Below are positions 4,385 to 59,990 of a stretch of 64,000 bases of DNA, piece by piece. Source of the stretch: Bugula neritina (lineage: Eukaryota > Animalia > Bryozoa); the NCBI GenBank assembly GCA_964035545.1, contig OZ037768.1, positions 17,219,875-17,283,874 of the forward strand, given 5' to 3'. Position numbers and translations under genes: made by a program. The notes under the pieces were generated by a model. It was not told where the DNA came from and ran no database searches. It was given only the letters and a program-made list of their open reading frames with translations. How positions within the stretch are numbered: position 1 is the stretch's first letter; the number at the start of each line of letters is the position of its first letter.

Positions 4385-6689
4385 CTAATGCTTCATTAGT
4401 TGCTTTCTCTTTCTGTTGTATTCCCAATAAATGTTAAATTTACTGCCAATAATGGCAATTGGCAAAGCTGTTAGCAGAATCCCCGATAGGGCACACAAAA
4501 CTCCAACAAAGTATCCACCAACTGTAGAAGGATAGAAGTCTCCGTATCCAACTGTCGTCATGGTGACGATCGCCCACCAGTATCCTTACAATGGTATGAT
4601 AAAAATGTTGCATAACATAAAATACAAAACTAAAAAATATTTGCAGTACCTTCAGACAAAAGACACAACAATTTATAGTTATTAAAATAGTTTTATAAGT
4701 TTATCTAGGTCTATGTTTAAAATTCAATAAAAACTAAAAAATGATATTTACATTTGCAGCAGTTTACTTTTCACAAAACAAAGTCATCTGCATCTGGCAC
4801 TTTACAATTACAGGTACAAGTATATGGCAATGTAAATGATATCACATAATAGCTTTGCGACACACATGTTTGACCCAACTCACTCTCATTAAAGAGATGT
4901 TTAGACTCCAAACATGTGAAGAACCAAAATACTGTCCCAACTCTTTACCATGATAGTGTTTTCATCGTAATAAATGTACAATTAACTTCAAAGTAACCAT
5001 CTTCACAGTCGGAGAACTGCTTACAGATGACAAAAATTCTGTACAGGAACTAGTTGCAAAAAATTTCCTTTAAGTAAAGACTGATTTTCAGCAGACAACT
5101 TTTGCATGAAAAGTTGTCTGTTCCTTAACTAAGAAATTTGTTGCATTCGAATCAACTTGAAATTTTGATTCAATCATTAATAAACTGAAGCTAAATTATA
5201 TAAAACTTTTGTCCCGATTGGGATTCGGACCTGAGACCTTCGATTTGCAAGCAGGCAAGCTACTATTACAATACAGGGGCTACTGGGTAAACTCAACACT
5301 GCACTAAAAAAACTTGCAACATTACGCAATGTATTGATAACTTAAGACAAAAGCAATGAGTTGTACAAACACTACGGTATGTTATTCAAAACAAAAGAAC
5401 TTTTACTGTCACATTGATTATGCATCCCAGAAGAATATACTATAAACAGAGATCACATTACCGTAGTTTACATCAGGAATGCCAACATCAAACCAGGAAG
5501 CCAGCTCAGCATATGAAATCAAAATGGCAAATATGAACATCGCAATGATTAGATGTAAGACCAGAATGAGCAGTTCCTTGATGCTCGCCTTCAGAGTCAA
5601 GACAATCACCATCAGCCCATCTACTACACTGGCATACTAAAATTATATATAATATAATATGTGTGTGTGTTATTTATTTAGTATACCCAAAAAAATGTTA
5701 AATATTTAAATTGACTTTATATTAACAATTACCTGAAAGATCTTTAAAATCCTCAAGACTTGTACAGACTTCAACACTGGTAAGACGATGTACAGATTTG
5801 ACTCATGTCGTTCAAGATATAATTCTTCTCTTGGACTGACGAACTGAATAGTAAAAAAACTACAAGCATTTAGTCCAGCTATTATGTCAATCCATGTCAA
5901 CAGAGACTTGAAGTATGCCTTGCCAGGACAAACAAGCAGACGTAGAACAGTTTCTGCAATGAATAATGACATCAGGAATCTTTCTACAGAAAGTATCCAG
6001 GGGAGAGGTTGACTCCCAATATAGCAGACTATTTTCTGCCTGCTGGCACATCCTGTTTGAAAGTAGGCATCCTCCAGGCTATGGGGGTCGTATTGCTCCA
6101 GATGGCTGTTGTTCAATGGTGTTCTGAAGAACATACTAGACTCTAGCCCATATACCACCAGGTAGAGTACAATTAATACGATGGAACACGCAGCATATGC
6201 AATGGAGAGCTTTGGAAAAGGTGTGTGCGGTCCAAATGGGTCTGTGAGAAAACACCAGAGTTTATATCTGAAAACCATCAGACTGTTAGACCCTGGAGGA
6301 GGTGGTGGTGCCCTGTTTTCCAGCCACTGAAACTCTGCTTCCAAATGTGATTCTTCATCATCTTGAACTCCTTTGATATCTTCTTTTGGAACATTCCAGA
6401 AGTTTATTTCTTCTATCACCAGGTCTTTGTCATATCCAGATGGTACATTCAGCACATTGTATCTGAGAATATTCAGGGCTGCATTGAATAATGCAGGATC
6501 TCTATCAAAATAGAATGCATTGAGCTCTTCAATCCAATGATCTGCTAGTAAATGTGGAGAAGCAAACTTGCTGTGTGGGTAACTTTTTATCAGCTGATTA
6601 GAAACAATAAACTTCTGACCCGAAATGTTGAAATTGATGAGCTCTGATGTAGATTTCTTGGTATTACTTATTGTCTTTACATTCGACAT
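4385..6689 (-). CDS. Voltage-gated K+ channel family subunit, Shaw/Kv3-like and divergent (paralog A)
   Basis: Coding exons 6689-5733 (T1 domain FYFDRDP, S1-S4), 5636-5462 (S5) and 4584-4385 ([18 protein letters not shown] pore, S6, stop TAG). The last exon is absent from the ORF track. A splice acceptor at 6711-6712 lies just upstream of the ATG. Confidence 0.9.
5211..5283 (-). mobile_element. Degenerate tRNA-like sequence (tRNA pseudogene or head of a second SINE family)
   Basis: The minus strand has a B-box-like GGTCCGAATCCC and an anticodon-arm-like CTTGCAA; the stems pair poorly. Confidence 0.35.
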
Positions 6690-8039
6690 CTTTAAACCTT
6701 GTGACTTGACCTGAAAAAGTGAAATAAAATTGTTGAAGAATGGTTTTAAAAGCTGCATATGCAAACTCAGTTGTGTGAAACTATGGTAATTTGCAAAAAT
6801 TACTTTGGTTTACTGATTATACTGGTAATGAGAATTAATTATCAATTTGCTTATTGAGAATTTGATCATGTCTCTCATGTCTGCACAGCCCTTTCAAAAT
6901 ACTATTTATTAATAAAAACACTGACGGAAAATATAATTATTAATAATAAAATCATTAAAGAAATTATATCATTATGCTCCCATGCAACCGAAAATCTATC
7001 TGTACGAGCATCCATCTGGATCCACTCAAACTATAGGATTGTAGTGATTATAATGTTTATTTTCAATATAAGTCTAACATAAAAGTTTACTAAGGTAAGA
7101 AGCACTAAGCAGGGCTTTTCAATTCCCGTGTGTAGTTTATTTTCTTTTGCAATATTTCAATTTATTTATTATATCACTTTTCTATGAATTGTTTTAAAAT
7201 AGATCTAATACAAAAGAATGAAGCCTGGCTTTTTGTTTTTCATCAAATTTATTCGCAGCAAGAAAACTCTTTGCTCATTAATTCTGCACGGAATCAATAA
7301 GTCACAACTACTGACCATATCTCTAACCCAATTAAGTATTTAATAGATTATATTAATAATATAGTATATTCATTAGTTTTTAGAAAAGTTACGTCAGCTT
7401 TAAGAATTATCTGCGTCTGCAGATTCATTTGATATGCGCTCTATTTCATATGCACTTCGTATCTATTGCTTCAAGAAAATTAAAGTAACAAATCAATCCA
7501 TAACAGAATTATAACAAAACATACCTGTAAAGCTGTATATCTGTAAATACAGAATTTTATAGGTTCTGTTAGAATTCTCGTATGGGTGGATATTAAGCAC
7601 AGATTCTGACTTGTAACATGACACTCCCTATGAAGTTGGTTAAGCTGACTGCTTTATAGAGGTTGTTGATATCTCCATCTATTAATAAATTGAGTGAAGT
7701 ATACTAACAATTGAAGTGCTATCAATTACCAATGAGTTTATAAGAGGTTTGCTGTCAGCTTTTTGTGAAACTGTGAACAGCTTTATTCAAGGCATTATAT
7801 GCTTCATTTTGTAAATAGGAAATATATGCTAAAAATATTTGAAAATATAAGCAATTTGTGGTTTCAGTTACAATATTATTGATCACATTGGTAACATATG
7901 ACAACTAATATTACATAAGTATGAAATTTTCTGCAGGTTTTGAATTAGCTCGATTTATTCAAATTTAAAACATCAACAGTTTTGTCAATACTGGAATACA
8001 CTTCATAAAATAGTAACATGTGTATAATGCATGTAATAG

Positions 8040-8255
8040 GGAGTAGCCGTGGTCTAGGGGTTAGAGCATTTGCTAAGTAAGCACGAAGTCATGGGTTCTT
8101 GCCGCGGCAAAGGCCATTGGTGATGTTAGAAAGAGCATCCAGTCATAATTACTCTTGTGTCTCATTTAAATAAGTCCTTAGCCCGATTTAACAAAAACCC
8201 TTTGCATCAGAGGTTTTATCACTAGGATGGTGACTATAAACTTGCTTGAGTTTTT
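8040..8255 (+). mobile_element. tRNA-derived SINE (about 210 bp), copy 1
   Basis: A-box-like TAGCCGTGGTCTAGGGGTTAGAGC, B-box-like GGTTC, conserved core GGTGATGTTAGRAAGAGCATCCAGTCATAA and T-rich end. Six related copies occur in the window. Confidence 0.8.
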
Positions 8256-8895
8256 ATAATGCATGTAGTGCTTAGCTACACGGTAACTAAACCCAAGTAT
8301 GAATAAGAAATTTATCTACTTTAACTAAAGTGAAATAGATTTTTATGTATTGGTGAATGATTACATAGTTCAACAAGCAGTAATGTTACAATGCGAAGTA
8401 CATACACTACATTTCCATGCTTTTCATCACCATTTCTCATTCAGTGTTTAGAAACAGTTGCATGAAATATAGCCACAACCATATGTTCATCCATACAAGC
8501 ATTCATTCCCATAATGCTAAGTTATGAAAAACTAATGATATTGTATATTTGTATGTGGTTCTTAACCATACATTATATAGACTTATTGTATTTAAAATTT
8601 GCTTCAACATGCAATAAGTTTACAATGTGGTTATATAGTAGGCTGACAAAAAGTGAATATTATTTGAAATAACATACTAGGAGAGAAACAGGATAAAAAA
8701 GAAAATTCAGAATCACAGACTTTTTAATATATCAAACACTGAAGAAGAGGAAAAGCTATAGCTTAACATAAGAACTTTATAATATTATCTAGCTTAAACG
8801 TCTAAGCTTGCATATCAAAAGTTTATTTTTCCTGTAGTTGTTGAAAGTATTCAATTTTTCTATACAACTTATAAATTTATAAAAGGCATCTCTCC

Positions 8896-11800
8896 TTATA
8901 GCTGCAAATACTCAATATCAAGTTGTACATTCTCATGGCTGTCATGTATCTCTCTGTCCTCTTTCTCTCTCTCACTCTCTCGCTTTAGTGCTGCCATCAG
9001 TAATTGTCTTCTCCTCTTATTATGCTCCCAGTAGACATTAAAGTTGCTTCCAATAACAGCTACTGGTAGAGCAGTGAGAATTATTCCAGTGAGGGAGCAC
9101 ATAACTCCAATAATATAACCAACAACTGTAGTAGGATAGAAGTCGCCATATCCAACTGTTGTCATGGTGATAATTGCCCACCAGTATCCTGAAACAATCA
9201 GACACTCTTACAATTTGCAAGACATATTCAATTATATCTGATTATTCAGTTCATTTGTTTTTTGTTAAAACCAAAAGACGAGTCTGAGAAAGAAATCAGA
9301 CCAAAAGCTGCATGCATGCAGCTTTTTGAGACACTGGGATGTTTAGTGTTAGATCTAGCCTATATAGTCTGTCTTCTCAACATGGCTGGAGTTGCATGTG
9401 CTCTACAACTGAGGGTCAAAAGTTTTATTCAATATTTCAGTATAGATTTAAACTGAAGCTCTTATATTGCAAGAAATCCTCAAAACAATTAGTTTTATGG
9501 TAGTTAAAGTTTAAATTAAACTGGGTTATTTTAAAAATGCATGTTTCACTTGTAAAAGTAAACACAAATGTGAAAAATCTTTAACCAATGTCAAGTTTAG
9601 ATTACATACAGGTTGATAACTTATACTATAATAGGCTTCTGTTAAAATTATTCACTTTATAATGTGGTATGCATGCAAATATTATACTTGGATATTAGAA
9701 AACTATTGTAATAATATTACACAACTTTTATGGCTATAGCTAATGAATGCTATTACCAATTCCCCTTCATTATTAGACATTAGAGAAAAGCTGTGGTCTA
9801 GGGGTTAGAGCGGTTGCCTAGTAAACCCGAAGTCATGGATTCGAGCCCTGACAAAGGCCATTGGTGATGCTATGTATTGAACTAGCCTTGTCAATACACC
9901 ACATAGATGCATATTATGACATACCACATTTTATGTGCTCGGTTACTTTTTATTCTAATGTCTATTTGTTTAAACTCATTATATACAGTTTTTGCCATAT
10001 CAATATACAAGCCAGTTGTTATTCTGTCACTGTTTATCTACATGTATTTTTATGTCAGTTACTTGTTAGCTTCAATACAATACAGTCATACATTCTACTC
10101 TACAGCCAATCTTACTTATACGTGCTTAATCTTACTGTTTACTCTTGTTTAACATAAATAACAAGAACACAACAACTGGTGTCAGAACTGGGATAAATAC
10201 AACCACATCATTTTGAAATGGAGGAAGTTATAAAACAACTTGTAACAATAATGCAGCAACAACAGCAGCAGCAGATGGAGCAATTCGCTCAAATACTGGG
10301 ACAATTTACTACAGCTGTAAAGCCTGGTGAACCTGCACAAAATAAATCTGTAACTGTGCCTAGATTCGACTCTTATGACAGAGACAAGGAATCATGGACT
10401 CAGTATTTACAGCGGCTCAATCAACACTTTACTGTTTACAACGTAAGTGACAGTGAACAAAAACGAGCTTGCTTACTTTCATGGATTGGCTCAGAATGTT
10501 ATGAATTGCTAACAAAACTGTATGGCTCGGAGGACATAACTACCATGTCGTTCGATAATCTAGCAGGTAAGCTTAGCACACATTTTATTGAAACAAAACA
10601 TGTGCAAGCAGCTAGATATCAGTTTTATAACTGTAAAATGAAACCTAACCAGTCATACTCAGATTGGGCAGCTGATTTACGGGGTTTAGCTCGTAACTGC
10701 AATTTTACCTGTAAAAAGGAAGACTGTGGTGAAAGTTATGTTGATGATCAAATTCGTGACATAATTATTAAAGAAACTCCACATGCTGATGTACGTAGAC
10801 AATGCTTATTGGATCCAGATCCTACACTGGAAAATGTGTTAAAGAAGGCAGCTACATACATTCAAACAGCAGAAACTGATAAAGTTTTGAAGGGTGAGAC
10901 CTCTACACCTGTTACCACAAATCAAATGTCCTCAACATACAAACGTCAAAACAAAGGTAGTCAGGGCAAGAGACCACAATTTCACAAGTCTGAAAACCAG
11001 ACTGCTATGCCAACACAGCCTTCCAAGTTGAAATCGTGTCCACAATGTTACATTAGCCACGATCGTAAACAATGTCCTCATCGTAACAAACAATGTAAGC
11101 TGTGCAACAAAACAGGACATATTTCTAGCGTCTGCAAAACTTCATCAAAATCAAGTGGGAACAACTCTCACTTCGTAGAAGAATCTTCAAGTAGTGTTTA
11201 CAATATATATGAACGCAAGGGGAAACAAATATGGATTAACACTACTGTGAACAACAAACAAACACAATTTCAGTGGGACACAGGCGCTACTTGTTCTATG
11301 GTAGGGAACAAAGGCTACGAAGCCCTAGGCTCTCCACCATATCAACAGACAGACACGACCCTTCATTCATATGGAAATACCGCTATGCAGGTACGTGGTG
11401 AATGCTATGTAACAGTAACCATTGGTCAGACTACAAAAAACAATCTTCGATTATTAATAGTAGACTCAGATGAAGGTGTCAACTTACTGGGTGTAGACTG
11501 GAGTGACAGTTTTGGACTATCACAACAGGGTCTATCTGCTGTAGACAGTGACACCGAGGTTACTAACGCGGTACACAATGTTGATACCAAGGTCAAAGTT
11601 CTCACAACAAAATATCCCGATGTTTTCAAACCTGGAATAGGACATTGTAAAACATTCAAAGTACCAATTTACCTCAAATCAGAACAGAAACCTTGTTTTT
11701 CTAAACCTAGAGAAATCCCCTATTCTCAACATGAGGCCACTAGGGCTGAATTGAACAGGCTTGAAGCTGAAGGTGTCATACAACGTATTAACTTCAGTAA

Positions 11801-14800
11801 CTGGGCCGCTCCTATAGTAGTGGTTACCAAACCGTCTGGCAAAGTTCGCATCTGTGGAGATTTCAAGCGACTCAATCAGTGCATCTCCATAGATCAGCAT
11901 CCACTACCAAAACTGGATGATTTAATGAACAGGCTTAGAGGAGGTAAATTCTTCACCAAACTTGACTTGGCTGATGCTTACCTACAACTTGAGCTAGAAG
12001 ATGATGCCAAACAGCTGTGTGTGATAAACACTCCATTCGGATTATACCAATATAATAGAATGTGCTTTGGAATTGCCCCTGGTCCAGCTCAGTTTCAACG
12101 GTGTATGGATACCTTGACTCAAAAATTACCAGGAGTTGCTGCATACCTTGATGATTTAATCATTACTGGTAAAACGGAGGAAGAACACTGGACTAATCTG
12201 ACAAACCTGCTTTCAACACTTCAAGAGCATGGTTTTCGAATACGATTAGACAAGTGTGAATTCTTCAAGCACTCTGTTGAGTATCTGGGTCACACCATCG
12301 ACAAGGATGGCAAACGACCAACAGCTGCTTCCATGGCAGCTCTCTCTCAATTACCTCGACCACAGGACTTGCACCAACTGCAAGCATTTCTAGGAAAGGT
12401 TAACTACTATGGGCGCTTCATCTCTAATCTTGCGGATAAAGCAGCTCCACTGTACAAGCTCCTCAAGAATGATACCACATTCACATGGTCAAATGAATGT
12501 GAACAAGCCTTTACCCAGCTGAAGAATAGCATTATCAATGCTACTAGCCTGACACACTATGATGAGACAAAACCCCTAATTCTTGCAGCCGATGCGTCAT
12601 CCTATGGATTAGGAGTTGTTCTCTCACAGGATACTGATCAGGGAGAAGTTCCAGTGGCTTACGCTTCAAAAACAAGGAAATGCTATCTACATAGTACAAA
12701 CAGACAGTGGCAACTGGAAGAGGCATGCTAATCAGCTTCAAATTCGCCTTCCATCTACAAATATGAACAAATCAGTGGTACCCAACACACCCCAAGCTGA
12801 TAATAATATTTTCCATCCTCATGAGAGGCGCTATCCAACCAGAGAGCGCAGACAGCCAGATTGGTACAAGCCATAACTCTTAAGTCTAAATTTGTGAGGG
12901 AGGAGTGCTATGTATTGAACTAGCCTTGTCAATACACCACATAGATGCATATTATGACATACCACATTTTATGTGCTCGGTTACTTTTTATTCTAATGTC
13001 TATTTGTTTAAACTCATTATATACAGTTTTTGCCATATCAATATACAAGCCAGTTGTTATTCTGTCACTGTTTATCTACATGTATTTTTATGTCAGTTAC
13101 TTGTTAGCTTCAATACAATACAGTCATACATTCTACTCTACAGCCAATCTTACTTATACGTGCTTAATCTTACTGTTTACTCTTGTTTAACATAAATAAC
13201 AAGAACACAACAGGTGATGCTAGGAAGAGCATCCAGTCATAGTCGCTCCTGTGACCCATTTAACAAAAACCCATTCCATCAAGGGTTTTCTCACAGGGAT
13301 GGCGACTATAAACATTTGTAAGCTTTTTATTAGACAGTGCAACTACTGTCTGCATGGTGTGTGCTGTAACTGTATAAAATACAATAACCGATTACCGTAA
13401 ATGCAGTCAGGAATTCCTGCTCCTGTGTCAGACTGCAGCTCAACAAAAGAGATGGTGGTAGCGAAAAGAAACATGGCGATCATCAGATACAACACCATGA
13501 TGGTCAACTCCTTTAGACAGGCTTTTAGAGTTAATATTATAATCATTAGCCCGTCCACAAAACTTGCAAACTACAAAACAAGTATATAACAGCTCAAAGT
13601 TTACAATGTGCTGTAAATGTTATTTAGAAAGCATCCTGTGAAATGTGTATTAAGCACCAACTACTGGAAAATAACTTATGTTAAATAATAAGGTTGTGGC
13701 CATCTTCTATTTGATGTCATTTTAGCTTCTGTAAATAGAAATGAAACTGCTCGTATATACTGCTTTAGGTACGTTGAATAGTGCATATCCTAAAAAGTCT
13801 TTTGTTATGTTGAGAAAAAAACTGGAATAAGCAAAAACCATAACACAAAATTATTCAAAGTGACCCAATTATATGAAAAGAACTGTCCATATAATATCCA
13901 AATGTGTAAGTATAGGTGTAGGTCTAAGTGTAGGTGTAGGTGTAGATCTGTAGATGTAAGTGTAGGTGTATTGTGTAGGTGTATTGTGTAGGTGTAAGTG
14001 TAAATGTAGGTGTAAGTGTAGGTGTAAGTGTAAGTGTAAGTGTAGATGTAAGTGTAGGTGTAAGTGTAGGTGTAAGTGTAGATGTAAATGTAGGTGTAAG
14101 TGTAGGTGTAAGTGTAAGTGTAGGTGTGAGTGTAGGTGTGAGTGTAGGTGTGAGTGTAGGTGTAAGTGTAAGTGTAGGTGTAGATGTAAGTGTAGGTGTA
14201 AGTGTAGGTGTAAGTGTAGGTGTAAGTGTAGGTGTAAGTGTAGGTGTAAGTGTAGGTGTAAGTATAGATGTAAATGTAGGTGTAAGTGTAGGTGTAAGTA
14301 TAAGTCTAGGTAGGTCAAGTAGAATGCCTAATCAATTTTGCAGTTTTAGCAGTTTGAAAAAATCTGCAAATAAATTTAGGAATTATTATTTCAGATTTGC
14401 CTAATTACAAACAGAAAACCGTTGGAGGTAATTTAAAATTTAAAGTTAGCAATTTAATTAAAATTTTACTGAGCTTACTGATCAGCTCAGCTTATGTACT
14501 AATAGGAACAAGTTTACAGCTCCCATTGACTGTGCGTCACAACTGTGAGTAATGAAAGATTGAATTTCTGGTATATTGCATTGATGTGTGTGTAAATATT
14601 GTAAACAAAATTAAATTATCAATAATTTGCTAAATGCAAACTCTTGAAAAATATAGCTTTTCAAACCAATAATATCATTATAAACATTATTTGTGCAGAA
14701 AATACTGCAACTAGACCCAATTTTAAAATGAAGTCTGTTGAATAAGTATTGAGAAGGTAAAAGATCTAGCAAAAATATTATCAACTGTAAATAGGAAGGA

Positions 14801-16003
14801 ATGTGACTACCAATGTTTCAGCCAACCCACAATTTATTTTTTTTTTAATTATAATTTCTGTTTATATAAAGTAATTAGGTTAGAGCTGTTTTCCTTGAGA
14901 ACAAAATTGAAGTGCTGTCTAGAATAAAGTTATACCCTATCAAAAGAAAATATTAAAAGTTAAAGTACCTGAAATATCTTGAAAATCTTCAAGACCTGCA
15001 ACGACTGGAATATCATCAATACTCTATGTATTTCTTTGTCATAGTGCTCATCAAAGTCGTACGAATTTGATATCGATGTCAGTGCAAACGAGCTAACAGC
15101 ACAGAGCCCTGAAAATATGTCCATCCAGTTAATAAATGATTTGAAATACATCAATCCTGGGCACAGAATCAAACGCAGTACTGTTTCAAAAACGAAAAAT
15201 GTCATGAAAACTCTCTTGGCTGTAATGATCCAAGGTTTTGGTGAGCTGTGGACGTAGCAATCAATTTTCTTCATTCCCGAGCAACCGATATTTTCTATGG
15301 CCTGCTCCATGTCACCAGTTAGGTTTCTGACAAAGCTTCTAGCTTCCTTCTCCGGGTTCGGTTGTCTGTAGTGCACACTGGTTCCTAGACCATGGATAAT
15401 CAAATACAGAAATACAGAAGCAATGGTGATCACAGCATACATGACTGACAGTCTTCTAAACTTTGTATATGGACCAAGTGGGTCAGTTATAAAACACCAA
15501 CATGTATATCTCAGCTCTAAAAACTTGTTAGACCCTGGAGGAGGTGGTGGTGCTCGGTTTTCCAGCCACTGGAACTCGGCTTCCAAACGGGATTCTTCAT
15601 CATCTTGAATTCCATTGATACCATCACTCGGAATATTCCAGAAGTTTATTTCTTCCATCACCAGCTCTTTGTCATATCCAGATGGTACATTCAGCACATT
15701 ATATCTGAGAATATTCAGAACTGCATTGAATAATGCAGGATCTCTATCAAAATAGAATGCGTTGAGCTCTTCAATCCAATGATCTGCTAGTAAATGCGGA
15801 GAAGCAAACTTGCTGTGTGGGTAACTTTTTATCAGCTGATTAGAAACAATAAACTTTTCTCCTGATATGTTGAAATGAAAGAGTTGAAGTGAAACCTTGC
15901 TTTTCTCTTTAGTGTGTTTTACAGCCATCTTTTCATTTTCTACGCCCACTTTATTTTTGCTGATAGCAAAAACTGCCGTAGCTACAGCCGCAAAGTCAGC
16001 CAT
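8896..16003 (-). CDS. Voltage-gated K+ channel family subunit, Shaw/Kv3-like and divergent (paralog B)
   Basis: Coding exons 16003-14969, 13570-13396 and 9188-8896. Exon phases and the 175-bp middle exon match paralog A; filter [12 protein letters not shown]. The second coding intron carries the Gypsy insertion. Confidence 0.9.
9868..13212 (+). mobile_element. Ty3/Gypsy LTR retrotransposon (Mag-like), internally deleted and non-autonomous
   Basis: LTRs of 307 bp at 9868-10174 and 12906-13212 (TG...CA, no differences seen by eye). 5-bp TSD GGTGA at 9863-9867 and 13213-13217. PBS TGGTGTCAGAACTGGGAT at 10177-10194, a near-complement of the tRNA-Leu 3' end. PPT GAGGGAGGAG at 12896-12905. Confidence 0.97.
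10218..12731 (+). CDS. Gag-protease-reverse transcriptase polyprotein, truncated in RNase H
   Basis: 837-aa ORF with tandem Cys/His knuckles (CPQCYISHDRKQC, CKLCNKTGHISSVC), protease WDTGA, RT motifs WAAPIVVV, RICGDFK and YLDD, and the RNase H start ADASSYGLGVVL...VAYASKT. Homology then breaks off and there is no integrase core. Confidence 0.93.
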   Translation: MEEVIKQLVTIMQQQQQQQMEQFAQILGQFTTAVKPGEPAQNKSVTVPRFDSYDRDKESWTQYLQRLNQHFTVYNVSDSEQKRACLLSWIGSECYELLTKLYGSEDITTMSFDNLAGKLSTHFIETKHVQAARYQFYNCKMKPNQSYSDWAADLRGLARNCNFTCKKEDCGESYVDDQIRDIIIKETPHADVRRQCLLDPDPTLENVLKKAATYIQTAETDKVLKGETSTPVTTNQMSSTYKRQNKGSQGKRPQFHKSENQTAMPTQPSKLKSCPQCYISHDRKQCPHRNKQCKLCNKTGHISSVCKTSSKSSGNNSHFVEESSSSVYNIYERKGKQIWINTTVNNKQTQFQWDTGATCSMVGNKGYEALGSPPYQQTDTTLHSYGNTAMQVRGECYVTVTIGQTTKNNLRLLIVDSDEGVNLLGVDWSDSFGLSQQGLSAVDSDTEVTNAVHNVDTKVKVLTTKYPDVFKPGIGHCKTFKVPIYLKSEQKPCFSKPREIPYSQHEATRAELNRLEAEGVIQRINFSNWAAPIVVVTKPSGKVRICGDFKRLNQCISIDQHPLPKLDDLMNRLRGGKFFTKLDLADAYLQLELEDDAKQLCVINTPFGLYQYNRMCFGIAPGPAQFQRCMDTLTQKLPGVAAYLDDLIITGKTEEEHWTNLTNLLSTLQEHGFRIRLDKCEFFKHSVEYLGHTIDKDGKRPTAASMAALSQLPRPQDLHQLQAFLGKVNYYGRFISNLADKAAPLYKLLKNDTTFTWSNECEQAFTQLKNSIINATSLTHYDETKPLILAADASSYGLGVVLSQDTDQGEVPVAYASKTRKCYLHSTNRQWQLEEAC
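13905..14312. repeat. Hexamer microsatellite (GTGTAA/GTGTAG)n
   Basis: About 400 bp of GTGTAR units in an intron of Kv paralog B; it explains the HLHL, CRCK and VGVS ORFs. Confidence 0.97.
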
Positions 16004-18211
16004 ATTTCTTATATAGATACTACCTGCGAGTAAAGGATACAAATTATTTAACCTAGAAACAACACTGAAATGCCGTGAACATTTATTGATTGCATATAAA
16101 CACACATGAATTATTGAATAAATTCAACATATAAAGACAATCCTCATCATGATGGCTTATTATAATACATTTATTGTATTACGATTTGTAATAAATTCTT
16201 TTTAGATGAACTCGAATTTTTGTTTGCTACAGTATATAGACTAATGCCAGCTTGAATCTTTGTTTATTTTAAAAACTAATGACAGAAAAAAAATGTGATG
16301 AAATCTATTTGAAAACATAAAAGCCAAGCTGAGATGAAGTGCTTGTATTTAAATGTTTTACTTACTCAAACTTTCAGTTTCTAGAAGAGTAGACTCATGA
16401 ACTCGCTCTATCCTTATCCTTGCATCCTCTCAGAAGCTCATGCTGGCACACACTAAATTTATATACTATGCAGTGACCACATTTCACAATAAAATAATCC
16501 TGTATAATACTGGTTGATCAGACACTTATCCCATATTACAACTACTAAACACTGATTCTATTCAATAATGAAGAGAGCTAAAAAATCAACCTATTTGATT
16601 GCAGGTTTATCGACATGGCTCTTTCACTTTATTCAAATATTGATTTAAGATTTTCCATTTTCCTGGAAAAGTTCATTGCCATTACTGAATATATTATAAA
16701 TGTTAAATATTATTCCATCCCACATTTTACATAAAAGGTAATCTCCCTCTTGTGCCCATTTGAAATCCATTTCAAGCTTTATTTTCTATCATAATAAAAT
16801 ACTGTGTAGGCAAATATAACTGCATGGCTTTGATATTAACCATTGGATGGCCAACATGATATAGCATTAAACTAAACCACAATGAAGAAAATTAGGATGA
16901 GTTATGAAATTATGTTGCACCAAAATCACATGGGGCAGTTAATTAAGTTATATATTTACAATAATTTGTGCAATTGTTGTATATGTAGCTTGTGTCCGAA
17001 TCAATTGCTGTCATTATTTGCTTGCTTCGGGTTAATAAACACAAATGATTTCAAACACAAATTATTTCAAAAGTAATATGTAATAGCATGAATACATAGC
17101 TCTAATTGTCAACTCACTCTGCTCTTTGAATAGACATGTATACACGATTTCTGTTACTTCCTCAAGCAATGAAAACGACTGAATATGAATTGGTTTGATA
17201 TTTGAAACTGCATGTGGATATACAATGCCCATGTGCAACTAAGTGCTCTACACATTTTATTATCATAATTTATCAGTTATACATGTATAGCAGATGCCAG
17301 TGAAAGGAAATACAGCATATTATATGCAACAGATATTGGACTTTAGTGCCAAAACATCCTTATTACTGCTGCTGTAATATGTACTATAGACTATATCAAT
17401 AATGAAGCATGTAATTTTATTGCCTTTTCATTTCGCTTCATATGACTGACATCATGGCAGATGGATGCTGCCTTGCGGTGTGTTTTTTCACAATATGGAG
17501 TTGTTCCTCTTGGTACAGCTAATGCTTATACTCTTGTAGCTGTCATCCTTTCAACTGTGTGAGCATAATGTATATTGTGTTAGCAGGATTGATCATGGAA
17601 TGAAATGACAAAATATGATAACATTTGCATGTATGGAATTGAATAAAACAATGGCCAAAGCAATGGTCCACAATGATGATGTAAAACTTAAACATATTAA
17701 ATTCATTTACTGACTGCTAATTAAGTTTTAAAAATTTTCTTTAACACTTGGGGTGAAAAAATTGTTGCTGGTAATTAAATTGTTGTTACATATAATATTT
17801 TTGACTACTATTAGAGATCAAGCCCAGTCAACAAAAATTCATTTACTACTATTAGCATTATTATTTAATCATATAAACTAACCTGCCAGCTGCCCAATAC
17901 TTTAACTTTCACTAATACTCCTAGTCTGTTGTCTAGAAAGTTATTTAATCTACCAGGGTGAGGCTATGAAGACTCGCCAGAAGAGAGCATTTGTGAGACA
18001 CATGGACCAGAAACACTGGTTTGACAATACAATGAAGTCTAATAGCAGAGTTACAACTATAGCATAAGCTAGACAGGATGTGGTGAAAGAGGTGCCATCA
18101 GCCATTGTAATTCACCTACAACAATAGCGAAGTCTTTTAACACACTGTATATGCTGTCTGCCAACTCTCCCTTCCCGATGACCTCTGCAGGTTGAAATAG
18201 AAGCCTTGAAT

Positions 18212-18405
18212 AAAAAGCTCACGCAAGCTTATAGTCGCTATCCCGTCAGAAAGCCCCTTATGGAAGGGTTTTTTGTTAAAATCAGGCTAAGGATGAGGCA
18301 CAGGAGCAATTATGACTGAATGCTCTTCCTAACATCACCAATGGCCTTTGTCCGGACTCATGTTTACTAGGCAAGCGCTCTAACCCCTAGACTACGGCTA
18401 CTCTC
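18212..18405 (-). mobile_element. tRNA-derived SINE copy 3
   Basis: Reverse complement of the SINE core and head (...TGCTCTTCCTAACATCACCAATGGCC...CTAACCCCTAGACTACGGCTACTC). Confidence 0.8.
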
Positions 18406-18578
18406 TGAGTTAAATACTTTGAATGATCTAGATATAAGTAGCATAATTTATAGTTCCTATAGATGCTATAAAACTCGTTTTATTTGCAGAATATTTGTGC
18501 AATTAAGTTCAATGAGTAGACCGTTCTATATTTTTGGAGTGAATAGTTAAATAAAGGCAAAGTTCTACCCAAGACAGA

Positions 18579-18582
<4 letters not shown>

Positions 18583-18642
<60 letters not shown>
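18583..18642. repeat. (TA)n microsatellite
   Basis: About 30 TA units; the tract resumes at about 18957-18975 on the far side of the ribozyme-bearing insert. Confidence 0.95.
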
Positions 18643-18645
<3 letters not shown>

Positions 18646-18957
18646 CAATCTGTGGACAGCAGCTGTTTCGGGGTTTGTCCCCTCATCAGCACAGAACAGA
18701 GTACCATGGCCCACACCTTCGCAATAGTAGAAACTTATGTTTCTACTAAAGCATATTTAAAAGGTGTGTAAACTCAAGCCAGAGAGCTCAAGTGACTCTA
18801 GGGTCACCTAGGAGTCACGAGCCTTGCAAAATGCTAGCAGCTTGAGTTTGTGACCATGGTGAGAGAGCTCAATCACTGAATGTCATTGCTGAGCATTAAG
18901 TGAGAGCATAATACCTCAATCTGTGGACAGCAGCTGTTTCGGGGTTTGTCCCCTCAT
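18642..18957 (-). mobile_element. Retrozyme-like or Penelope-associated non-autonomous retroelement (271-nt period, about 1.17 monomers)
   Basis: A direct repeat of about 45 bp at 18642-18686 and 18913-18957 contains the hammerhead; the second copy is truncated. There are internal hairpins and (TA)n on both flanks. Confidence 0.7.
18649..18695 (-). ncRNA. Type I hammerhead ribozyme
   Basis: The minus strand reads TCTGTG-CTGATGA-GGGG-ACAAA-CCCC-GAAA-CAG-CTG-CTG-TC-CACAGA: stem I TCTGTG/CACAGA, core CUGAUGA, stem II GGGG/CCCC, GAAA, a minimal stem III and a GUC cleavage triplet. Confidence 0.9.
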
Positions 18958-19206
18958 ATATATATATATATATATGTTGGAGGAGTCATGGGCCTTGCAT
19001 TATAATGCAAATTGAATTCATGATATCTCTGAGCATAAATTATGTATGCATTATATTAAATATGTAAATGCATACATAAACTAGTTTTGGGAATTGGGAC
19101 ATAGAATGTATATCATTGATATTTTTCATATGCAGATATGTTTAAATTCCTTAATCATAAAATGATATAGAAAACTGAGCTTCAATTATTTATAGCCTAT
19201 TGTTTT

Positions 19207-19208
<2 letters not shown>

Positions 19209-19286
<78 letters not shown>
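19209..19286. repeat. (TA)n microsatellite
   Basis: About 39 TA units. Confidence 0.95.
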
Positions 19287-19292
<6 letters not shown>

Positions 19293-19630
19293 ATAAATAT
19301 ACGAGAAAAATTATTGATTCATTATTTTATTAGGCAAAGTAATTATACTGATATATATATATATATGTACAAATTTGTCATAAAACTCACCACATAAAAT
19401 TATAAAGATTATCCTGCTTTACATCATAACAAGTAAATCATTGTATTAATATGCAATAAAACATGTCAAAATATCAAATATGCTGCAATCACTAGCCGCT
19501 TTAACATGTTGTATACCCTTATTAAGTAGTACGCATTAAATGTAATGTAACAAGTGATGACAACCACGTAAACACACTACTATGAAAGTATATATAACAT
19601 TGATGACAAATGATAATAATTTTATTCTTT

Positions 19631-22600
19631 TCATTCTTGAGAGTTGAGTTTTGAAATATCTGAAGTTGTCGTTCCAGCAGAAGTGTTTTTCTGTTTGTGT
19701 TTCTTCTTCAAGGCAGCAAACAACAGCCTTCTTCTCTTCCTATTGTGCTCCCAGTAGACGTTAAAATGGCTGCCAATAATGGCCACTGGCAAAGCCGTAA
19801 GAATAATTCCAGAAATAGCGCACAAAACTCCGACAAAGTATCCACCAACTGTAGAAGGATAGAAGTCACCGTATCCAACTGTTGTCATGGTGATGATTGC
19901 CCACCAATATCCTAAAACCCAAAGAAATACTTGGCTATAAAGAATATCCGTTGTAAAGTCACAATGCAATGCTAGCCTACAGGCTTTATTTTGCATTTTT
20001 CATCATAAATTGACCAAAGAGCATAGAGATTTTGGTTCGCCGACTATTGGGTTCAAAAACTTCAGCTTATTAGCAACATGAAATGCCTATTACTGATGGA
20101 TGTATTTTTCTGCTTCTGCTCACTTGCCTTTGAAGAAACACCTATTTGTTACACACTGATGCAAAATAGACCAGTTTCGCAGTGATTTCAACAATTGCTT
20201 TAATTTCCCAACTGGTGATATAATATATCAGTTAATTAAAAGAATTTTTCTGAGTGCCAACAACAATAAAAATTCACACATCAATGAAGTCACAAGACAA
20301 ATGTTTAGTGTCCTAATATAATTTGCCTGACAATTACATCAAGTTTTATATCTTTCAGCACAGTGTGAGTAACTTTGCCTTGGCCCTAGACCAAGGCTGT
20401 CCAACAGCCGGGCCCCAGGGCCGGATGTGGCCCCCTGCCTACATTTATGTGGCTCTCAAAGACATAAAACTAAAATTATTTTTCACAGCATATACATGAA
20501 TTAGAGTGAAAAACCACCTGCCTGATTTATACACATGCTATAAAACATGCAGCCAGCATCAACTATTGGGACTTTATTCTGTAATGATTCATAAGAATTT
20601 GGAATAAAATAATTCATTAAATACTGTGGCTGTGGCCCCCAGCACAAACTAAAGTTTACAATGCGGCCTTCCCCACAAAAAATTCAGTGGCCCTCGATCT
20701 AAAAAGTTTGGACACTCCCGCCCTAAACAGTGTGGTTTTAGTCAACAAGTGTAAAGGCCTTAGTATTGGTCAGCCTACCCACACTGGCTAGTTTATTAAC
20801 GTATAATGATAGTATAATGATGACTACAATGCCGAGGTTGTATGGTCACTTACTGGGTTACCTTTATAGTTTATAGCATTACCAGCCAGTGACTTATTTA
20901 ATCAATAATTTTCTTTCCTTTTATTTTCTAAAGTTCACAGTCAACACTCACCATCCAAGCTTAAAATTCATTGCTTTTACAAAATATAATTGGCCTATGT
21001 AAAGAATAATAAGCAATTGCTTTGTAGATAGTTTTATGTTATTAGAAGTTGTAACTGCAAATTGTTAGAAAAAGAGGAATACAAAATCATTGATACAAAA
21101 AGCTTTGAGGTGAGGTGGATTAATGAAGAGGTTAGGAAAAGCCTGTGTTCTAAATCAAAAATGCAACAAATAAAGTTATGTTCTTTCAAAGATTATTCAA
21201 GCTATATCTCAAGCCTAATTCATAATGAAAATTAAAAAACTTAATCTATTGAAATTTCTTTCTTACTGAACCTAAATATTTCTACCACAAAGATACTTGT
21301 ACAGCAAAATACCAAAAATAGATTCAGCCCCTAATTAAATGTTTACACATTTATACTAACTGTAGTGCCAGTTCTCTGTAACATGAAAAATTGATATCTG
21401 AACATATTGTTGTCCAATTTTGTTGTTGTCACATAAAGAGTTCAATAGAATTGCCTCCTCCACCTATAGGCCTTAAGGTGGTAAACTTCAAAGCAAAGAA
21501 TCTTAAGAATTTTGAAAAATAGATAAAGGATGTTTTATGCCGATCTTCAGTATTTCTTGATATATTACACAGTATCCTCCATATAGACATGCAAGTGCTT
21601 TTGCAGTCACTGTCCACTTTTAATTTAATAGGGGCTGCTAGAATGGTATGATAAATCATATCTGTTGACTATATTGGTCATAGTAAAATATGATTGGTAT
21701 GAGCTTTGCTAATAAATTTTAACAAAGCTTTCTTGTGTCAAGCAGGTATAATTTATTTATGATAAATTTGCATGCTTGTCAAAGGTTTTCACATGCATTT
21801 TTAGACACACCTAAAAGTTAATGCAGTTTTTGATGTTGCATTAGGCAACCTAACATAGATTTTATTAGACTGTCTATGAAAATCTTAGCAAGTAAACGCA
21901 ACTATTAATTCCTTAGCTTTTAAAAATTAATCCCTGACCAGAAGTACCACACATGGTCATAAAATATGAGCAATTTCTCCAGCAGATATGCTGAAAGAAG
22001 TGAAGATATTTGATCATATGGTTGACTGACTTTGATCAACACTATAAACCTTGTTGGAGAATAAGTGTGATAGTAATGGCATCAGCCTGCATGGAAGAGC
22101 ACAAGAGGAATGATGAGATCAGAGGCATGGCAGGAGTAAAAGCAGTAACTGTATCGATGAGGAAGAGTTAGCCTAGGGCCACACAGTGCGTATTTTCGCA
22201 TGCGAAAATTGAAATCACAAGTAGCAAAGGTGTCCACTGTAGCGTCAGTGACGCGTGATAAATAAAGCATTCATTTTAAAAAATCGCACTCGCTTTCAAT
22301 AAAACGCAATTACTGGAATATAGCACTAAAATAAAGAAATTGGGCTCGCTGAATAACTACCAGCCAATTAGGTGACGATGACCGAGACGATTCGCACTTG
22401 CGTTGAAAATGCAGAGCGACAAGTGCGAATGTTTTCTCAATGCGCACAGTGGATACCTTTGCTACTTGTGATTTCAATTTTCGCATGCGAAAATACGCAC
22501 CGTGTGGCCCTAGGCTAAGCTGAAATGGTATGGGCATGTATGCAGGTGAGACAAAGAGGAGGGCATAAAGAGAATCAGCAACATCAGTGTGGAAGGCAAG

Positions 22601-24292
22601 AGAGACAAATAGGTGAATGAATACCATAAGATGGGGATATGAGAGCGTGGAGCTTGCATAGCAAGGACACATGTAATAGAATTAGATAGAAACCATTAAT
22701 TGAGTTGGTTATGCAGAACAGTACTTAAATAGGTCGGATGAGAATAAGTGTGGTATGACTAGACTGTAAGTCTATGCAAAAGAATTTTAAGTATCTGATG
22801 CTGTGGTTCCCAGACTACCATACAGCATGAAGGCAGCGCTAGTTGATGGTTTAAGGCAGCACTCACCATAAACACAATCAGGCACTCCAACACCCATTTC
22901 TGATTGCAGCTCTAGGAACGAAACGGATGTAGCAAATATAAACATTGCTATCATTAGATACATAACCAGAAGGAAAAGTTCTTTCAAACAGGCTTTGAGT
23001 GTAAGCATCATCACCATGAGCCCATCTATCAGACTTGCGTACTGTAATGAAGAGAATTTGATGCTATAATTAATATATAGCTTTATTACTAATACAAGGT
23101 ATAACATCACAGCCCTATATATATTAATTACTTACTTTTGGCACTGCAAATGAAGTCAATATAAGATTATAGATTCAATGATATTATTTATCGACTATGT
23201 TTAATTTATTTGTTCAGAAAATAAGAAATTCTAAACAATTATAGAATTTGACTTTACCTGAAAAATTTTGAAAATCCTCAAAATCTGAATGGACTGCAGA
23301 CAGATAACAATGTAATGCAAATGCATTTCAGCTTCTCCCACAATCTCTTTGGTAACCACAACAATTTCGATGGCAAAAGCTGCCAACGCACCTATTCCAG
23401 CTAGAATGTCAATCCAAGTTATTATAGACCTAAAATACGCCAAGCCTGGACATAGGATCAATCGAATTAATGTTTCCAGGATAAAAACAAATTTTAAAGC
23501 GTATTTGGAGTAGGTTATCCAAAGTAAAGGTGTTGTTCGAATGTAGCATGATATTTTTGACATTTGAGAACAACCTAGATTGTCTATAGCAGAGTCTAGG
23601 TTGGTGGTCTCCGCAGTCTTGTTAGTGTAAAGAGCAGGTAAAGCGTGCTCATCAATAACTCTGTAATGTGGGCTGGTGCCTATGCCATAAAGTATCATGT
23701 ATAAAACCACTGCGACAATCGAAAACACGGCATATGCGATAGACATTCGCCGATATTTTGTATATGGACCAAGTGGGTCAGTTATAAAACACCAACATTT
23801 ATATCTCAGCTCTAAAAACTTGCTAGACCCTGGAGGAGGTGGTGGTATTCGGTTTTCCAGCCACTGGAACTCGGCTTCCAAACGTAACTCTTCATCATCC
23901 TGAACTCCTTCGACATCTTCTTTTGGAACATTCCAGAAGTTAATTTCTTCCATCACCAGCTCTTTGTCATATCCAGATGGTACATTCAACACATTGTATC
24001 TGAGAATATTCAGGACTGCATTGAATAATGCAGGGTCTCTATCAAAATAGAATGCATTGAGCTCTTCAATCCAATGATCTGCTAGTAAATGTGGAGAAGC
24101 AAACTTGCTGTGTGGGTAACTTTTTACCAGCTGATTAGAAACAATAAACTTCTGACCCGAAATGTTAATATGGAGAAAATGTAAATCTTTGACAGCATTA
24201 TCTTCCACCTTATTTGTCGTCATCTTTTTCAGATCTTCATTTGATAAGCTCATATTAATCACAGCACTAGCAACTGCAGCAACGTCACTCAT
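19631..24292 (-). CDS. Voltage-gated K+ channel family subunit, Shaw/Kv3-like and divergent (paralog C)
   Basis: Coding exons 24292-23258, 23041-22867 (175 bp) and 19911-19631; structure matches A and B; filter [12 protein letters not shown]. Confidence 0.9.
20392..20720. mobile_element. hAT-type MITE
   Basis: Imperfect TIRs CAAGGCTGTCCAAC...TTTGGACACTCCCG, subterminal GGCCC motifs and an 8-bp TSD CCCTAGAC/CCCTAAAC (20384-20391, 20721-20728). Confidence 0.75.
21106..21290 (+). repeat. Unclassified interspersed repeat of about 170 bp, copy 1 of 4
   Basis: GAGGT...GAAAAGCCTGTGTTCTA...AAGTTATGTTC...CTAAAT; related copies at about 35925-36092, 38215-38382 and 56379-56540. Confidence 0.7.
22085..22680 (+). 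mobile_element. Decayed 3' end of an RTE-clade non-LTR retrotransposon, interrupted by a MITE
   Basis: Removing the MITE gives [31 protein letters not shown]...VEGKR, which resembles the RTE C-terminal RNxxIR...LxWxGHVxR...GKR signature; it contains an in-frame stop. Confidence 0.65.
22171..22515. mobile_element. MITE with TIRs of about 70 bp, probably PIF/Harbinger
   Basis: GCCTAGGGCCACACAGTGCGTATTTTCGCATGCGAAAATTGAAATCACAAGTAGCAAAGG... with its near-perfect inverse ending at 22515; flanks are TTA and TAA. Confidence 0.85.
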
Positions 24293-26452
24293 ATTGAATG
24301 CTTTATGGGCTTGAATCCAGAGTAATGCTGTTATGAAAAAGAAAAATGTTTAATAAGAACAAATAATGATGCAAGACTGACAATTTTCATTCAACATAAT
24401 AAAATACATTTTAAGTAAATGAATTTTATTTACAAATTCTTACCTGAGAGCTTGAGAAAGGTAGAGGATGACCCTAACGCTTGATTTGTGGTTGTAAAAC
24501 TGCCTAAATAGTTAACAAGCTGCTGCCTACTTGAACAAAACAAGTCAATTGTCAAGAGCTGCCAAATCTCTGCACGAGAGGTGTTAAGAAATTAGTTCTC
24601 CAGCTGTGCCTTCTCAGTGTTACTTGCGGAGTGAATAATAGTTTGTAAGTAGCTAATTATTGAGTCTAAGTTCTTAGTGCTGCTTCTAGCTGAGGCTACA
24701 AACTAGGTGATTAGCATAGCCCTGCCCGAACAGAAATGAATGAATTGTGGCACACATTACTTTTAAGTAGATCATCTACCCTGGCTTATCCTTTCACACT
24801 ACAGTAATTACAGCTCCACAATAATACGTAATTTTATCCTGTCGTAAAATACATAAATCTAATTTAATAAATTGCCAAGACTGAAGAATGTCACAAACCT
24901 ACATTTAGAGCATAGACTGGTACCATATAACTAGTAAAATGGGGATGATTAGTCTCTTAGAGGCTGTATTGCCATAAGGTTATTGCACCATAAAGTAGTG
25001 GTGAATTTTCTTTTACATAATATTCAAAAATTATTTATTCAAGAACATACTAGGCCCTATAACTAAAAGTATTTTTTATATTTTTCTAAAATATAGTAAT
25101 TATATATGCTTGTTTAAAATAAAAGGTTGAATAAATGTCTGATACAATTAAGGGATTGTTTTAAATAGACAGTAAATTTTTCAGTATAAGCTAGTAAATA
25201 GCATATAGGAAAACCACTGAATATAATAATATGTAGGCATCTTGAACTAAATACTACCATCATTCTCAAAAATGCTCACAATGTTGTAAAGATATAATGG
25301 CAGGTCTGTAGCCACTTGCCTTTAAACATTCAATTGCTTAGCAATATGATGCAAGCACCTACTATTTGTACCATCAGACCAGCCACAAAAACAAGGTCAA
25401 CCGAGTGATCTTAGTATTATATTATAACAAAGCAATAAGCCCACTGTCAATATGTCAATGTGAATATTTGTAAACATACATCTGTTTTGTGAACTAGAAG
25501 TATTTTTTGTTGTATTATATGAAATGACTTTGGTTGACAACAGTCACAGCACTTTATACTTAAATACCTTGCAGTTTTAGTTCTAAAAACTTACATTGAA
25601 ATTTGGACTTGCAATATCAGTAATAAACACATGTTTTTTCTGACTGCATAAAGAACTGGTGACAGCTTGGCACATTCTATAGAAAGTAATAGCAATAGTT
25701 GGTCTACACTCTACAATCTACATCATTAAATGTTGAAAATTACAACTTTACAAAAAAAATAATGAAGGAAGCTTGGTAGGTTAGCAAGTGCTTTGTTTTA
25801 TTTTAACTTGTTTTCAGCCCATCTCTTAAAGTTAACTGTAGGCTCCCAGAAGAAATATATTTAGTGAAAGCTGCCATCGAAATAAAAAAAGTAATTCAAA
25901 CATGGATAAAATAAAAGCACAGCACCAACAAAACAATGATCATCAACCCATACCCTCGTAAAAACACCAAAAAGATTGTATTAAGTATTTTTTTCCCAAA
26001 AGAATGTATATGTTAGACTAAGAAAAACATTCGTTTAAAAACCTCACCATACCAACTTCTGCAATATTAAGATAAAAATACAAGATTAATGCTAAGTTGT
26101 ACTTCTAACAATTGAGATTACTGATGAAATTTAAACAGAACAACATTTTTCTATCTGCAAGAAAATAACATTAATATTCTTTAAAAAGAAACAACCTTAT
26201 TTATGGCTGTAAGCATTGGAACATATTTCATTGAATGAAATGTTTAAATGTCACTGCTCTAACTGTGACAAGATAATGCATTTCCAACATGATCAGCAGC
26301 TATGATATGGCATACATATAAACACACACACAAACATATTTAGTTTACAGTTTCAGAGCTGTGAGAATTAGCAATATGGAGATTCAAGCACTCATGGAAG
26401 GGAGAGGGGAGTAAATAAGTAACACAAAAACAATCCATCATTAAGGATTGCA

Positions 26453-46078: not shown

Positions 46079-49874
<3,796 letters not shown>

Positions 49875-59307: not shown

Positions 59308-59990
59308 TGAATCGAATCAGCGTTGAGTCAATCAAATCTACTTTGTGCTGGTTAGCTGAGCGGAGCTGAGTGAATAAGTGAGACATTAAATCACACGAGT
59401 ATGTCTTTTTACTCGGCTAACGCATGCCTGTATAATAAAACAATTGAATTTTTGTGGCTAATAAATAAATGAAAAGCCATTAACTCAAGGAATGCATTAT
59501 TTGTATTGCATAAAAGTAAATAGAACTTCGGCATAAATACTTAGTTGCTAAAAGCAGAACAGTAATAACATCTGTAGTCATAGTTACAAGGACATTTCGT
59601 AATTCATCTGTATGCAGCACAAAGGCCACAGGCCAAAGCCACACCTATTTTAAACTAAACCTATATCTTGCAACTGTAACTCTAATGCACTGTGTTGAAT
59701 ACACACACATCTTACATAGATACCACATGTTCACGTGGCTGCAGATAATTTACATGACTTATTGTCAGATCTTGTTTAACAATAATTAGGTTCCCTCCAA
59801 GCACGTGAAAACGAGGGGAGAGGGTTATCATATTTGCAACAGCTGCACTACAGTTTGGTTTCTTTCTAGCTGCTTTATGGTTTATAGCTGGTAAATTTAA
59901 ATTATGAATCACTATAATATGATGTTGATTGCATTTAATATGAAAGTATTCAAATAGCTGAGAGTCAGAAAAGTTAAATGCCAGTGATGT

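Follow-up and report, generated by a model that had tools for sequence, protein, structure and literature searches.

The locus described here raises the question of what a potassium channel gene may encode when its pore is intact and its voltage sensor and gate are altered. Three genes from the family of voltage-gated potassium (Kv) channels, called A, B and C, lie in tandem on the minus strand of a 64,000-nucleotide stretch of Bugula neritina DNA (contig OZ037768.1, positions 17,219,875 to 17,283,874); this whole stretch is the window, and all coordinates below are counted along it. The sequence-only reading of the window had proposed a lineage-specific radiation, either of regulatory subunits that act only in heteromers or of voltage-insensitive channels, with a dismantled sensor and gate. 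A, B and C are tandem paralogs, old and intact, within a Kv clade of bryozoans. At a probability of about one half, they are regulatory subunits, predicted to be silent when expressed alone, that would share one assembly code and bring different weak sensors to mixed channels.

All three genes could be rebuilt with open frames; A encodes 443 amino acids, B 500 and C 496. Each consists of three coding exons, with GT-AG introns at the same two places, after S4 and right before the pore helix, and the NCBI model of a Watersipora relative has the identical joined sequence around both junctions. Pfam places the T1 assembly domain (BTB_2, PF02214, above cut-off) in the first exon and the ion-transport domain in the last exon of every gene. 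The products have the Kv fold with six membrane helices, and the TTVGYGD filter is present in all three.

Evidence for splicing comes from joints that skip introns in contigs of sequencing runs, which are presumed to be RNA although none is registered as such. Gene C is fully spliced, since both coding introns and an intron in the 5′ untranslated region (UTR) are skipped at their GT-AG ends in contigs of X1, X3 and X9, runs from three studies; in contigs of run X14 the introns are not skipped. For B and A the splice evidence is partial. X3 and X9 contigs join exon 3 of B to sequence matching the end of exon 1, the loose end of the X3 contig reading as the S3-S4 segment of B, and exon 3 is covered by contigs of X1, X3, X9 and X10. 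The joint between exons 2 and 3 of A is found in one X1 contig with a depth of 3.9, that is, in one of the four runs. The joint between exons 1 and 2 of A and the two exact joints of B did not turn up, which does not argue against them, as exons 1 and 2 of B lay beyond the two stretches compared. The C gene of the window differs from the X1 contig at 37 sites; among the 32 listed, 22 codons are silent and nine are changed, and no codon change falls in S4, the filter or the gate. In exon 3 of A, seven of the nine listed strain differences are silent. The genes are thus transcribed and conserved under purifying selection, and the prospect that they are unexpressed and evolving neutrally, which the sequence-only reading had itself raised as an objection, does not agree with the spliced contigs and the mostly silent differences. 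The idea that the copies are decaying, or that their near-identical T1 tracts (described below) are an artefact of assembly, is largely refuted. It draws on A, which has the weakest transcript evidence, lacks an N-terminal motif of the clade and diverges between strains by about 6-10% (pieces from X1 and X10) versus about 2% for B and C, and on a fresh retroelement in an intron of B. Against it stand the open frames, the exact splicing of C in three studies, the silent nature of most strain differences, the scattered differences among the T1 copies and a shared T1 contig in X9 that is flanked by two paralog-specific contigs. An X10 contig leaves the window sequence within the last codons of A, whose 12-residue tail may therefore be strain-specific.

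The proposed radiation exists, as 27 further sequences belong to the same clade. The clade table thus holds 30 sequences, leaving out redundant cluster members and two near-copies of C (P0001 and P0002), and the records with an organism name come from Bugula and Watersipora. A profile of the clade separates its members sharply from other proteins, with members scoring at least 398 bits and the next protein 115 bits among 7,991 scored candidates; a search of 1.84 billion representatives added 15 more members. Exon 1 of C matches a Bugula neritina protein at 96% identity, with 78% of the exon covered, and a full-length Watersipora subatra protein named 'egl-36-like' at 49%. P0001 has 18 residues missing inside T1, and P0002, the database protein from B. 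neritina, goes out of frame in S2; each may be an assembly error. The AlphaFold model of a Watersipora relative (predicted local distance difference test, pLDDT, 86) has a normal T1 and six helices, and its best structure matches are Kv4, Kv1 and Kv3.

In a tree of 28 rows (LG+G4, with a warning for long branches), the clade groups with two other Watersipora proteins (support 99/96) and then with six mollusc proteins (100/99), and in this tree it is not placed within canonical Shaw. When this 12-protein mollusc-bryozoan group is joined to Shaw, Kv1, Kv2 or Shal, none of the four placements is rejected by the approximately unbiased (AU) test (p-AU 0.42, 0.21, 0.40 and 0.12). Kv1, represented by a single row, is rejected as the direct sister of the clade (p-AU 0.0006 under LG+G4, with long branches). 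In a tree of S1-S4 only, the order of A, B and C is supported at just 53/90. The Atlas contains matches in Kv clusters only, the closest being a mostly mollusc Shaw-like cluster. A second, larger set of Kv sequences (P0136-P0154 and similar, and Watersipora P0033, P0034 and P0210) mostly has two S4 charges and a mostly intact T1 zinc motif; its first exon ends a few codons later than in the clade of A, B and C.

Invertebrate Shaw (Capitella P0068, insect Shaw-like) agrees with the clade in its uncharged S4 positions 1 and 2, its charges at 3 and 4, the Gly before the Trp pair of the pore helix and the T1 spacing. It differs in its long tail and in having retained S4 charges 5 and 6, PVPVIV, the zinc motif and Glu at the outer S2 site, and the identity is about 25%. 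The 'egl-36-like / Shaw-like' set of molluscs and bryozoans (Haliotis, Patella, Pecten and Watersipora P0033/P0034) shares the P-x-A gate, the short tail and a reduced S4, with three or four charges in molluscs and two in Watersipora P0033/P0034, but it keeps the zinc motif and mostly the outer S2 acid, and it lacks the Cys pair of the clade. Shaw genes number 13 in Lottia and nine in Capitella (PMC3519636).

The S4 strings, the filter, the gate and the S2 Lys are all as the sequence-only reading gave them, while the word 'dismantled' overstates what happened to the sensor. All 29 clade sequences that extend over S4 have basic residues at positions 3 and 4 and Gln at position 5, so the motif does not arise by chance; position 2 is Gln in 27, and position 1 is mostly Gln or acidic, being basic in A and three other members. 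This numbering follows gapless full-length alignments from S4 to the Gly-Leu of the linker, which are preferred to a single exon-only alignment with charges at 4 and 5 and a three-residue insertion. In the same alignment, the residues of canonical invertebrate Shaw at positions 1 and 2 are already non-basic (Glu and Ser), which leaves 5 and 6 as the only new losses. The inner S2 acid and the S3 acid, the two inner counter-charges, are kept in all 30 sequences, and the S2 Phe in 26 of them. The outer S2 acid is lost in 29 of the 30. The Lys noted at this site is present in B and C, but it is found in only nine of the 30, so that the loss of the acid, rather than the Lys, is the rule of the clade. 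A, with Glu at this site, is the only member with acids at both the outer S1 and the outer S2 sites, and position 1 of its S4 is Lys. Such an exchange of charge between the outer S2 site and S4 position 1 is seen only in A; as a general rule it was discarded, since the S2 site carries no acid in the three further members whose position 1 is basic. The S4-S5 linker is stripped of basic residues. Judged from these residues, the sensor of the clade is reduced, not dismantled.

In Shaker, the pairing of the outer S2 acid E283 depends on the state, with R1 as its partner at rest and R3 and R4 when the sensor is intermediate or activated, while the inner acids pair with K5 and serve folding (PMC7059764). 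By analogy, a sensor without the outer acid would be poorly stabilised in its raised state and would carry little gating charge per subunit, and a channel joined by such a subunit would have a flatter or displaced activation curve. The three charges and both outer acids of A, a single case, hint at a more responsive sensor, so that A would be the most voltage-responsive of the three. The reduced sensor might instead conduct by itself. Omega (gating-pore) current is known from N.at-Kv3.2 of the flatworm Notoplana, a natural Kv3-related channel with missing S4 charges (PMC2443804), and most clade members have no charge at two adjoining positions of S4, 1 and 2. This is nevertheless very improbable, because N.at-Kv3.2 has lost positions 1 and 3 (His and Gly), whereas the clade keeps 3 and 4 (position 3 being basic in 29 of 29) and has Gln as its substitute; in addition, canonical Shaw is also without charges 1 and 2, and the outer S2 residue, Lys or hydrophobic, should hinder cations.

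A further mark of the clade is a pair of Cys residues in the S1-S2 loop, found in 29 of 29 sequences and likely to form a disulfide. Such an invariant extracellular pair would fit channels that are gated mainly by stretch, pH or a ligand at the disulfide loop, or that have a non-conducting role, with S4 acting as a folding scaffold; the linker without basic residues and the retention of the inner acids, which serve folding in Shaker, alongside loss of the outer one would fit as well. This alternative is improbable, since the S2 Phe and the two invariant charges of S4 are required by a sensor that moves, and nothing points directly to another stimulus. A hydrophobic N-terminal motif is recognised by a loose pattern in 22 of 27 sequences, A being among those without it. 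The peptide has no match in the PDB; it might serve for inactivation or as a helix that binds a partner.

The gate has changed in a way that is characteristic of regulatory subunits. None of A, B and C has the PVP(V)IV-type S6 gate of homomer-forming subunits, and all four full-length clade proteins read P-[VI]-A-[VI]-I-G, with Pro3 replaced by Ala and Val6 by Gly; Pro at gate position 1 together with Ala, Ser or Gly at position 3 occurs in 24 of the 72 other full-length matches and is thus widespread. An altered gate, which the sequence-only reading had taken as a regulatory mark, matches the published signature: in a comparison of 27 homomer-forming with 43 regulatory subunits, gate alteration is universal in the latter, while the 27, from mouse and anemone, share a PVPVIV-type consensus (PMC6279357). 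The same Pro-to-Ala change in Shaker, P475A, gives a non-conducting homomer (PMC2233862 Table I), and the altered gate of A, B and C would likewise not open in a homomer. The very short C-termini, a further claim of that reading, hold against canonical Shaw, with 12, 43 and 39 residues past S6 in A, B and C versus 189 and 287 in two Shaw proteins, but they do not set the triplet apart, as five related mollusc and Watersipora proteins have 23-35. By this comparison, both the gate change and the short tail predate the triplet and are common to mollusc channels.

The likeness to regulatory subunits extends beyond the gate. Vertebrate Kv5, Kv6, Kv8 and Kv9 and the cnidarian Kv1, Kv3 and Kv4 regulatory groups also combine T1, six helices and an intact filter with a degenerate PVPVIV that keeps only the first Pro, long branches and lineage-restricted expansion (PMC6279357). 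The clade is likened to them by sequence, and its silent phenotype is a prediction. The vertebrate silent subunit Kv8.2 keeps a full S4 and three T1 Cys residues, whereas in the clade S4 is down to two charges and both the outer S2 acid and the zinc ligands are lost. Half of the cnidarian Shaker-family genes are thought to be regulatory, and seven of 16 ctenophore channels were silent (bioRxiv 10.1101/2024.12.09.627618), frequencies that give the regulatory reading a high prior.

Two features that the sequence-only reading had missed concern T1, namely a lost zinc site in the clade and homogenised DNA in the triplet. The motif HX5CX20CC, which marks Kv2, Kv3 and Kv4 (bioRxiv 10.1101/2021.11.09.467962), is absent from all 27 clade T1 domains and present in 66 of the 72 other full-length matches; all four ligands are gone, including the Cys that is donated to the neighbouring subunit. 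The domain is zinc-free as in Kv1 but Shaw-like in its spacing, so the loss is likely to be independent of Kv1. Zinc is reported to be essential for the T1 tetramers of Kv3.1 and Kv4.2, while Kv1 assembles without it, and four vertebrate silent subunits have lost the T1 His and kept the neighbour-donated Cys (same preprint). Since some silent subunits thus also lose a T1 zinc ligand, this feature supports the regulatory reading.

The T1 domains of A, B and C are 95-99% identical in amino acids, versus about 40% in S1-S4, and 96-97% identical in DNA over about 220 bases, with silent sites in S1-S5 near saturation. Where two paralogs have the same residue, the codons are identical in 62-65 of 67-69 cases in T1 versus 34-42 of 95-101 in S1-S5 (Fisher p 5e-11 to 3e-16). 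For all three pairs, the best window was unmatched by 5,000 shuffles (permutation p 0.0002). T1 is not inherently conserved in the clade, because 115 other pairs with 35-50% identity in S1-S4 have a mean of 51% and a maximum of 64% in T1. A weaker signal of homogenisation is found in the pore (p 0.03-0.08). Over 23974-24151, run X9 has a single shared contig, which is met by two others that are each specific to a paralog. The window copies of B and C differ in this segment at seven of 178 sites; this suggests that homogenisation goes on separately in another strain. Differences among the three T1 copies are scattered. Gene conversion has likely homogenised the T1 DNA and thereby probably keeps the shared assembly domain alike, an arrangement implying a single partner specificity for all three genes: with identical T1 domains they would choose the same partners, and with diverged sensors they would tune the resulting four-subunit channels differently. 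Of the 348 clade pairs outside the triplet, P0009 and P0011 show the widest gap, with 86% identity in T1 and 58% in S1-S4; an older T1 conversion in another species may be the cause.

Several points weigh against A, B and C being silent regulatory subunits. The pore and S6 are well conserved. The loss of Pro3 is accompanied by Gly at gate position 6 also in Hydra and in other Watersipora proteins, and this Gly could be compensatory, as in KCNQ channels, whose PAG gate conducts; the Shaker mutants were made in a different background. Canonical Shaw is a doubtful partner and one that is hard to picture, because all T1 zinc ligands are lost. Conversion, too, may be no adaptation but a side effect of the tandem arrangement. 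Finally, the Shaw channel of the fly has four S4 charges and is described as leak-like, conducting with low voltage sensitivity (PMC4649037).

In a possible but clearly less probable account, the clade is a private, zinc-free Kv subfamily that assembles exclusively with itself into a weakly voltage-dependent, leak-like K+ channel, with A, B and C mixing freely through their identical T1 domains. It is favoured by the zinc motif (0/27 versus 66/72), the gap of 398 to 115 bits to all other Kv proteins, the clade-specific Cys pair (29/29) and the intact pore. Canonical Shaw, too, keeps the S4 charges at positions 3 and 4, and Kv1 assembly is a precedent for a zinc-free T1 (bioRxiv 10.1101/2021.11.09.467962). 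The gate argues against it, given the PVPVIV-type consensus of the 27 homomer-formers (PMC6279357) and the silencing of Shaker by P475A (PMC2233862). A bolder and equally tentative proposal is that a fifth, zinc-free assembly class arose in bryozoans that conducts with a two-charge sensor and a proline-poor gate, features that silence textbook Kv channels; T1 conversion would keep one code while the sensors diverge, giving a mix-and-match set.

Regulatory Kv subunits are known to have arisen repeatedly and have been characterised in vertebrates and cnidarians, while the lophotrochozoan Shaw-like expansions have been counted. What is new here is the two-charge sensor, the zinc-free T1 and the probable conversion focused on T1. 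A literature search that covered few subscription journals found no study of bryozoan Shaw-type potassium channels, no functional study of lophotrochozoan Shaw-like expansions and no report of T1 gene conversion in potassium channels. The clade is a natural experiment on how few S4 charges suffice for a working sensor, on whether a channel conducts when its gate lacks the second proline, and on the origin of new T1 assembly codes. In the triplet, nearly one T1 is combined with three different sensors, that of A having extra charges and counter-charges, and conversion limited mainly to the assembly domain would be a simple way to keep paralogs compatible while their gating diverges.

Table. Features of the three Kv genes and of the element inserted in gene B (window coordinates)
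Feature	Position	Strand	Content	Basis
Gene A, whole	6689-5733/5636-5462/4584-4385	-	three coding exons	rebuilt gene model
A exon 1	5733-6689	-	T1, S1-S4; Lys at S4 position 1; no N-terminal motif	
A homogenised T1 tract	6396-6614	-		paralog comparison
A exon 2	5462-5636	-	S4-S5 linker, S5, turret	
A exon 3	4385-4584	-	pore helix, filter 4538-4558, S6 gate LPIAIIG 4445-4465, 12-residue tail, stop	
Gene B, whole	16003-14969/13570-13396/9188-8896	-	three coding exons	rebuilt gene model
B exon 1	14969-16003	-	N-terminal motif, T1, S1-S4 (S4 14969-15007; outer S2 Lys)	
B homogenised T1 tract	15638-15856	-		paralog comparison
B exon 2	13396-13570	-	S4-S5 linker, S5, turret	
B exon 3	8896-9188	-	filter 9142-9162, gate LPVAVIG 9049-9069, 43-residue tail	
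Gene C, whole	24292-23258/23041-22867/19911-19631	-	three coding exons	rebuilt gene model
C 5′UTR intron	about 24328-24443	-		
C exon 1, coding part	23258-24292	-	N-terminal motif, T1, S1-S4 (S2 23474-23521, Cys pair 23546-23575, S4 23258-23296)	
C homogenised T1 tract	23933-24151	-		paralog comparison
C exon 2	22867-23041	-	S4-S5 linker, S5, turret	
C exon 3	19631-19911	-	filter 19865-19885, gate LPVAIIG 19772-19792, 39-residue tail	
Long terminal repeat (LTR) retroelement in B intron 2	9868-13212	+		LTRs and reading frame

The retroelement in B intron 2 is very recent, with identical 307-bp LTRs (9868-10174 and 12906-13212) and a 5-bp target duplication. Its frame (10197-12728) encodes gag, protease, reverse transcriptase and RNase H and ends there, with no integrase match. 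The element sits within a short interspersed repeat, another copy of which lies at 8037-8255. B intron 1 has a long tandem repeat of 6-base units (13808-14400), C intron 2 has a high-copy inverted-repeat element (22168-22518), and (TA)n runs are found at 18580 and 19210.

Elsewhere in the window, minus-strand exons with a TLGYGN filter (57700-59316) look like a two-pore K+ channel, the one exon scanned having no Pfam match. Minus-strand exons of urocanate hydratase occupy 26456-32087 (PF01175 at 31761-32087), and plus-strand exons of a protein tyrosine kinase (PF07714, 27-1649) lie just downstream of gene A. Plus-strand exons of a short-chain dehydrogenase (PF00106) are located at 47775-48536, and they resemble 2,4-dienoyl-CoA reductase.

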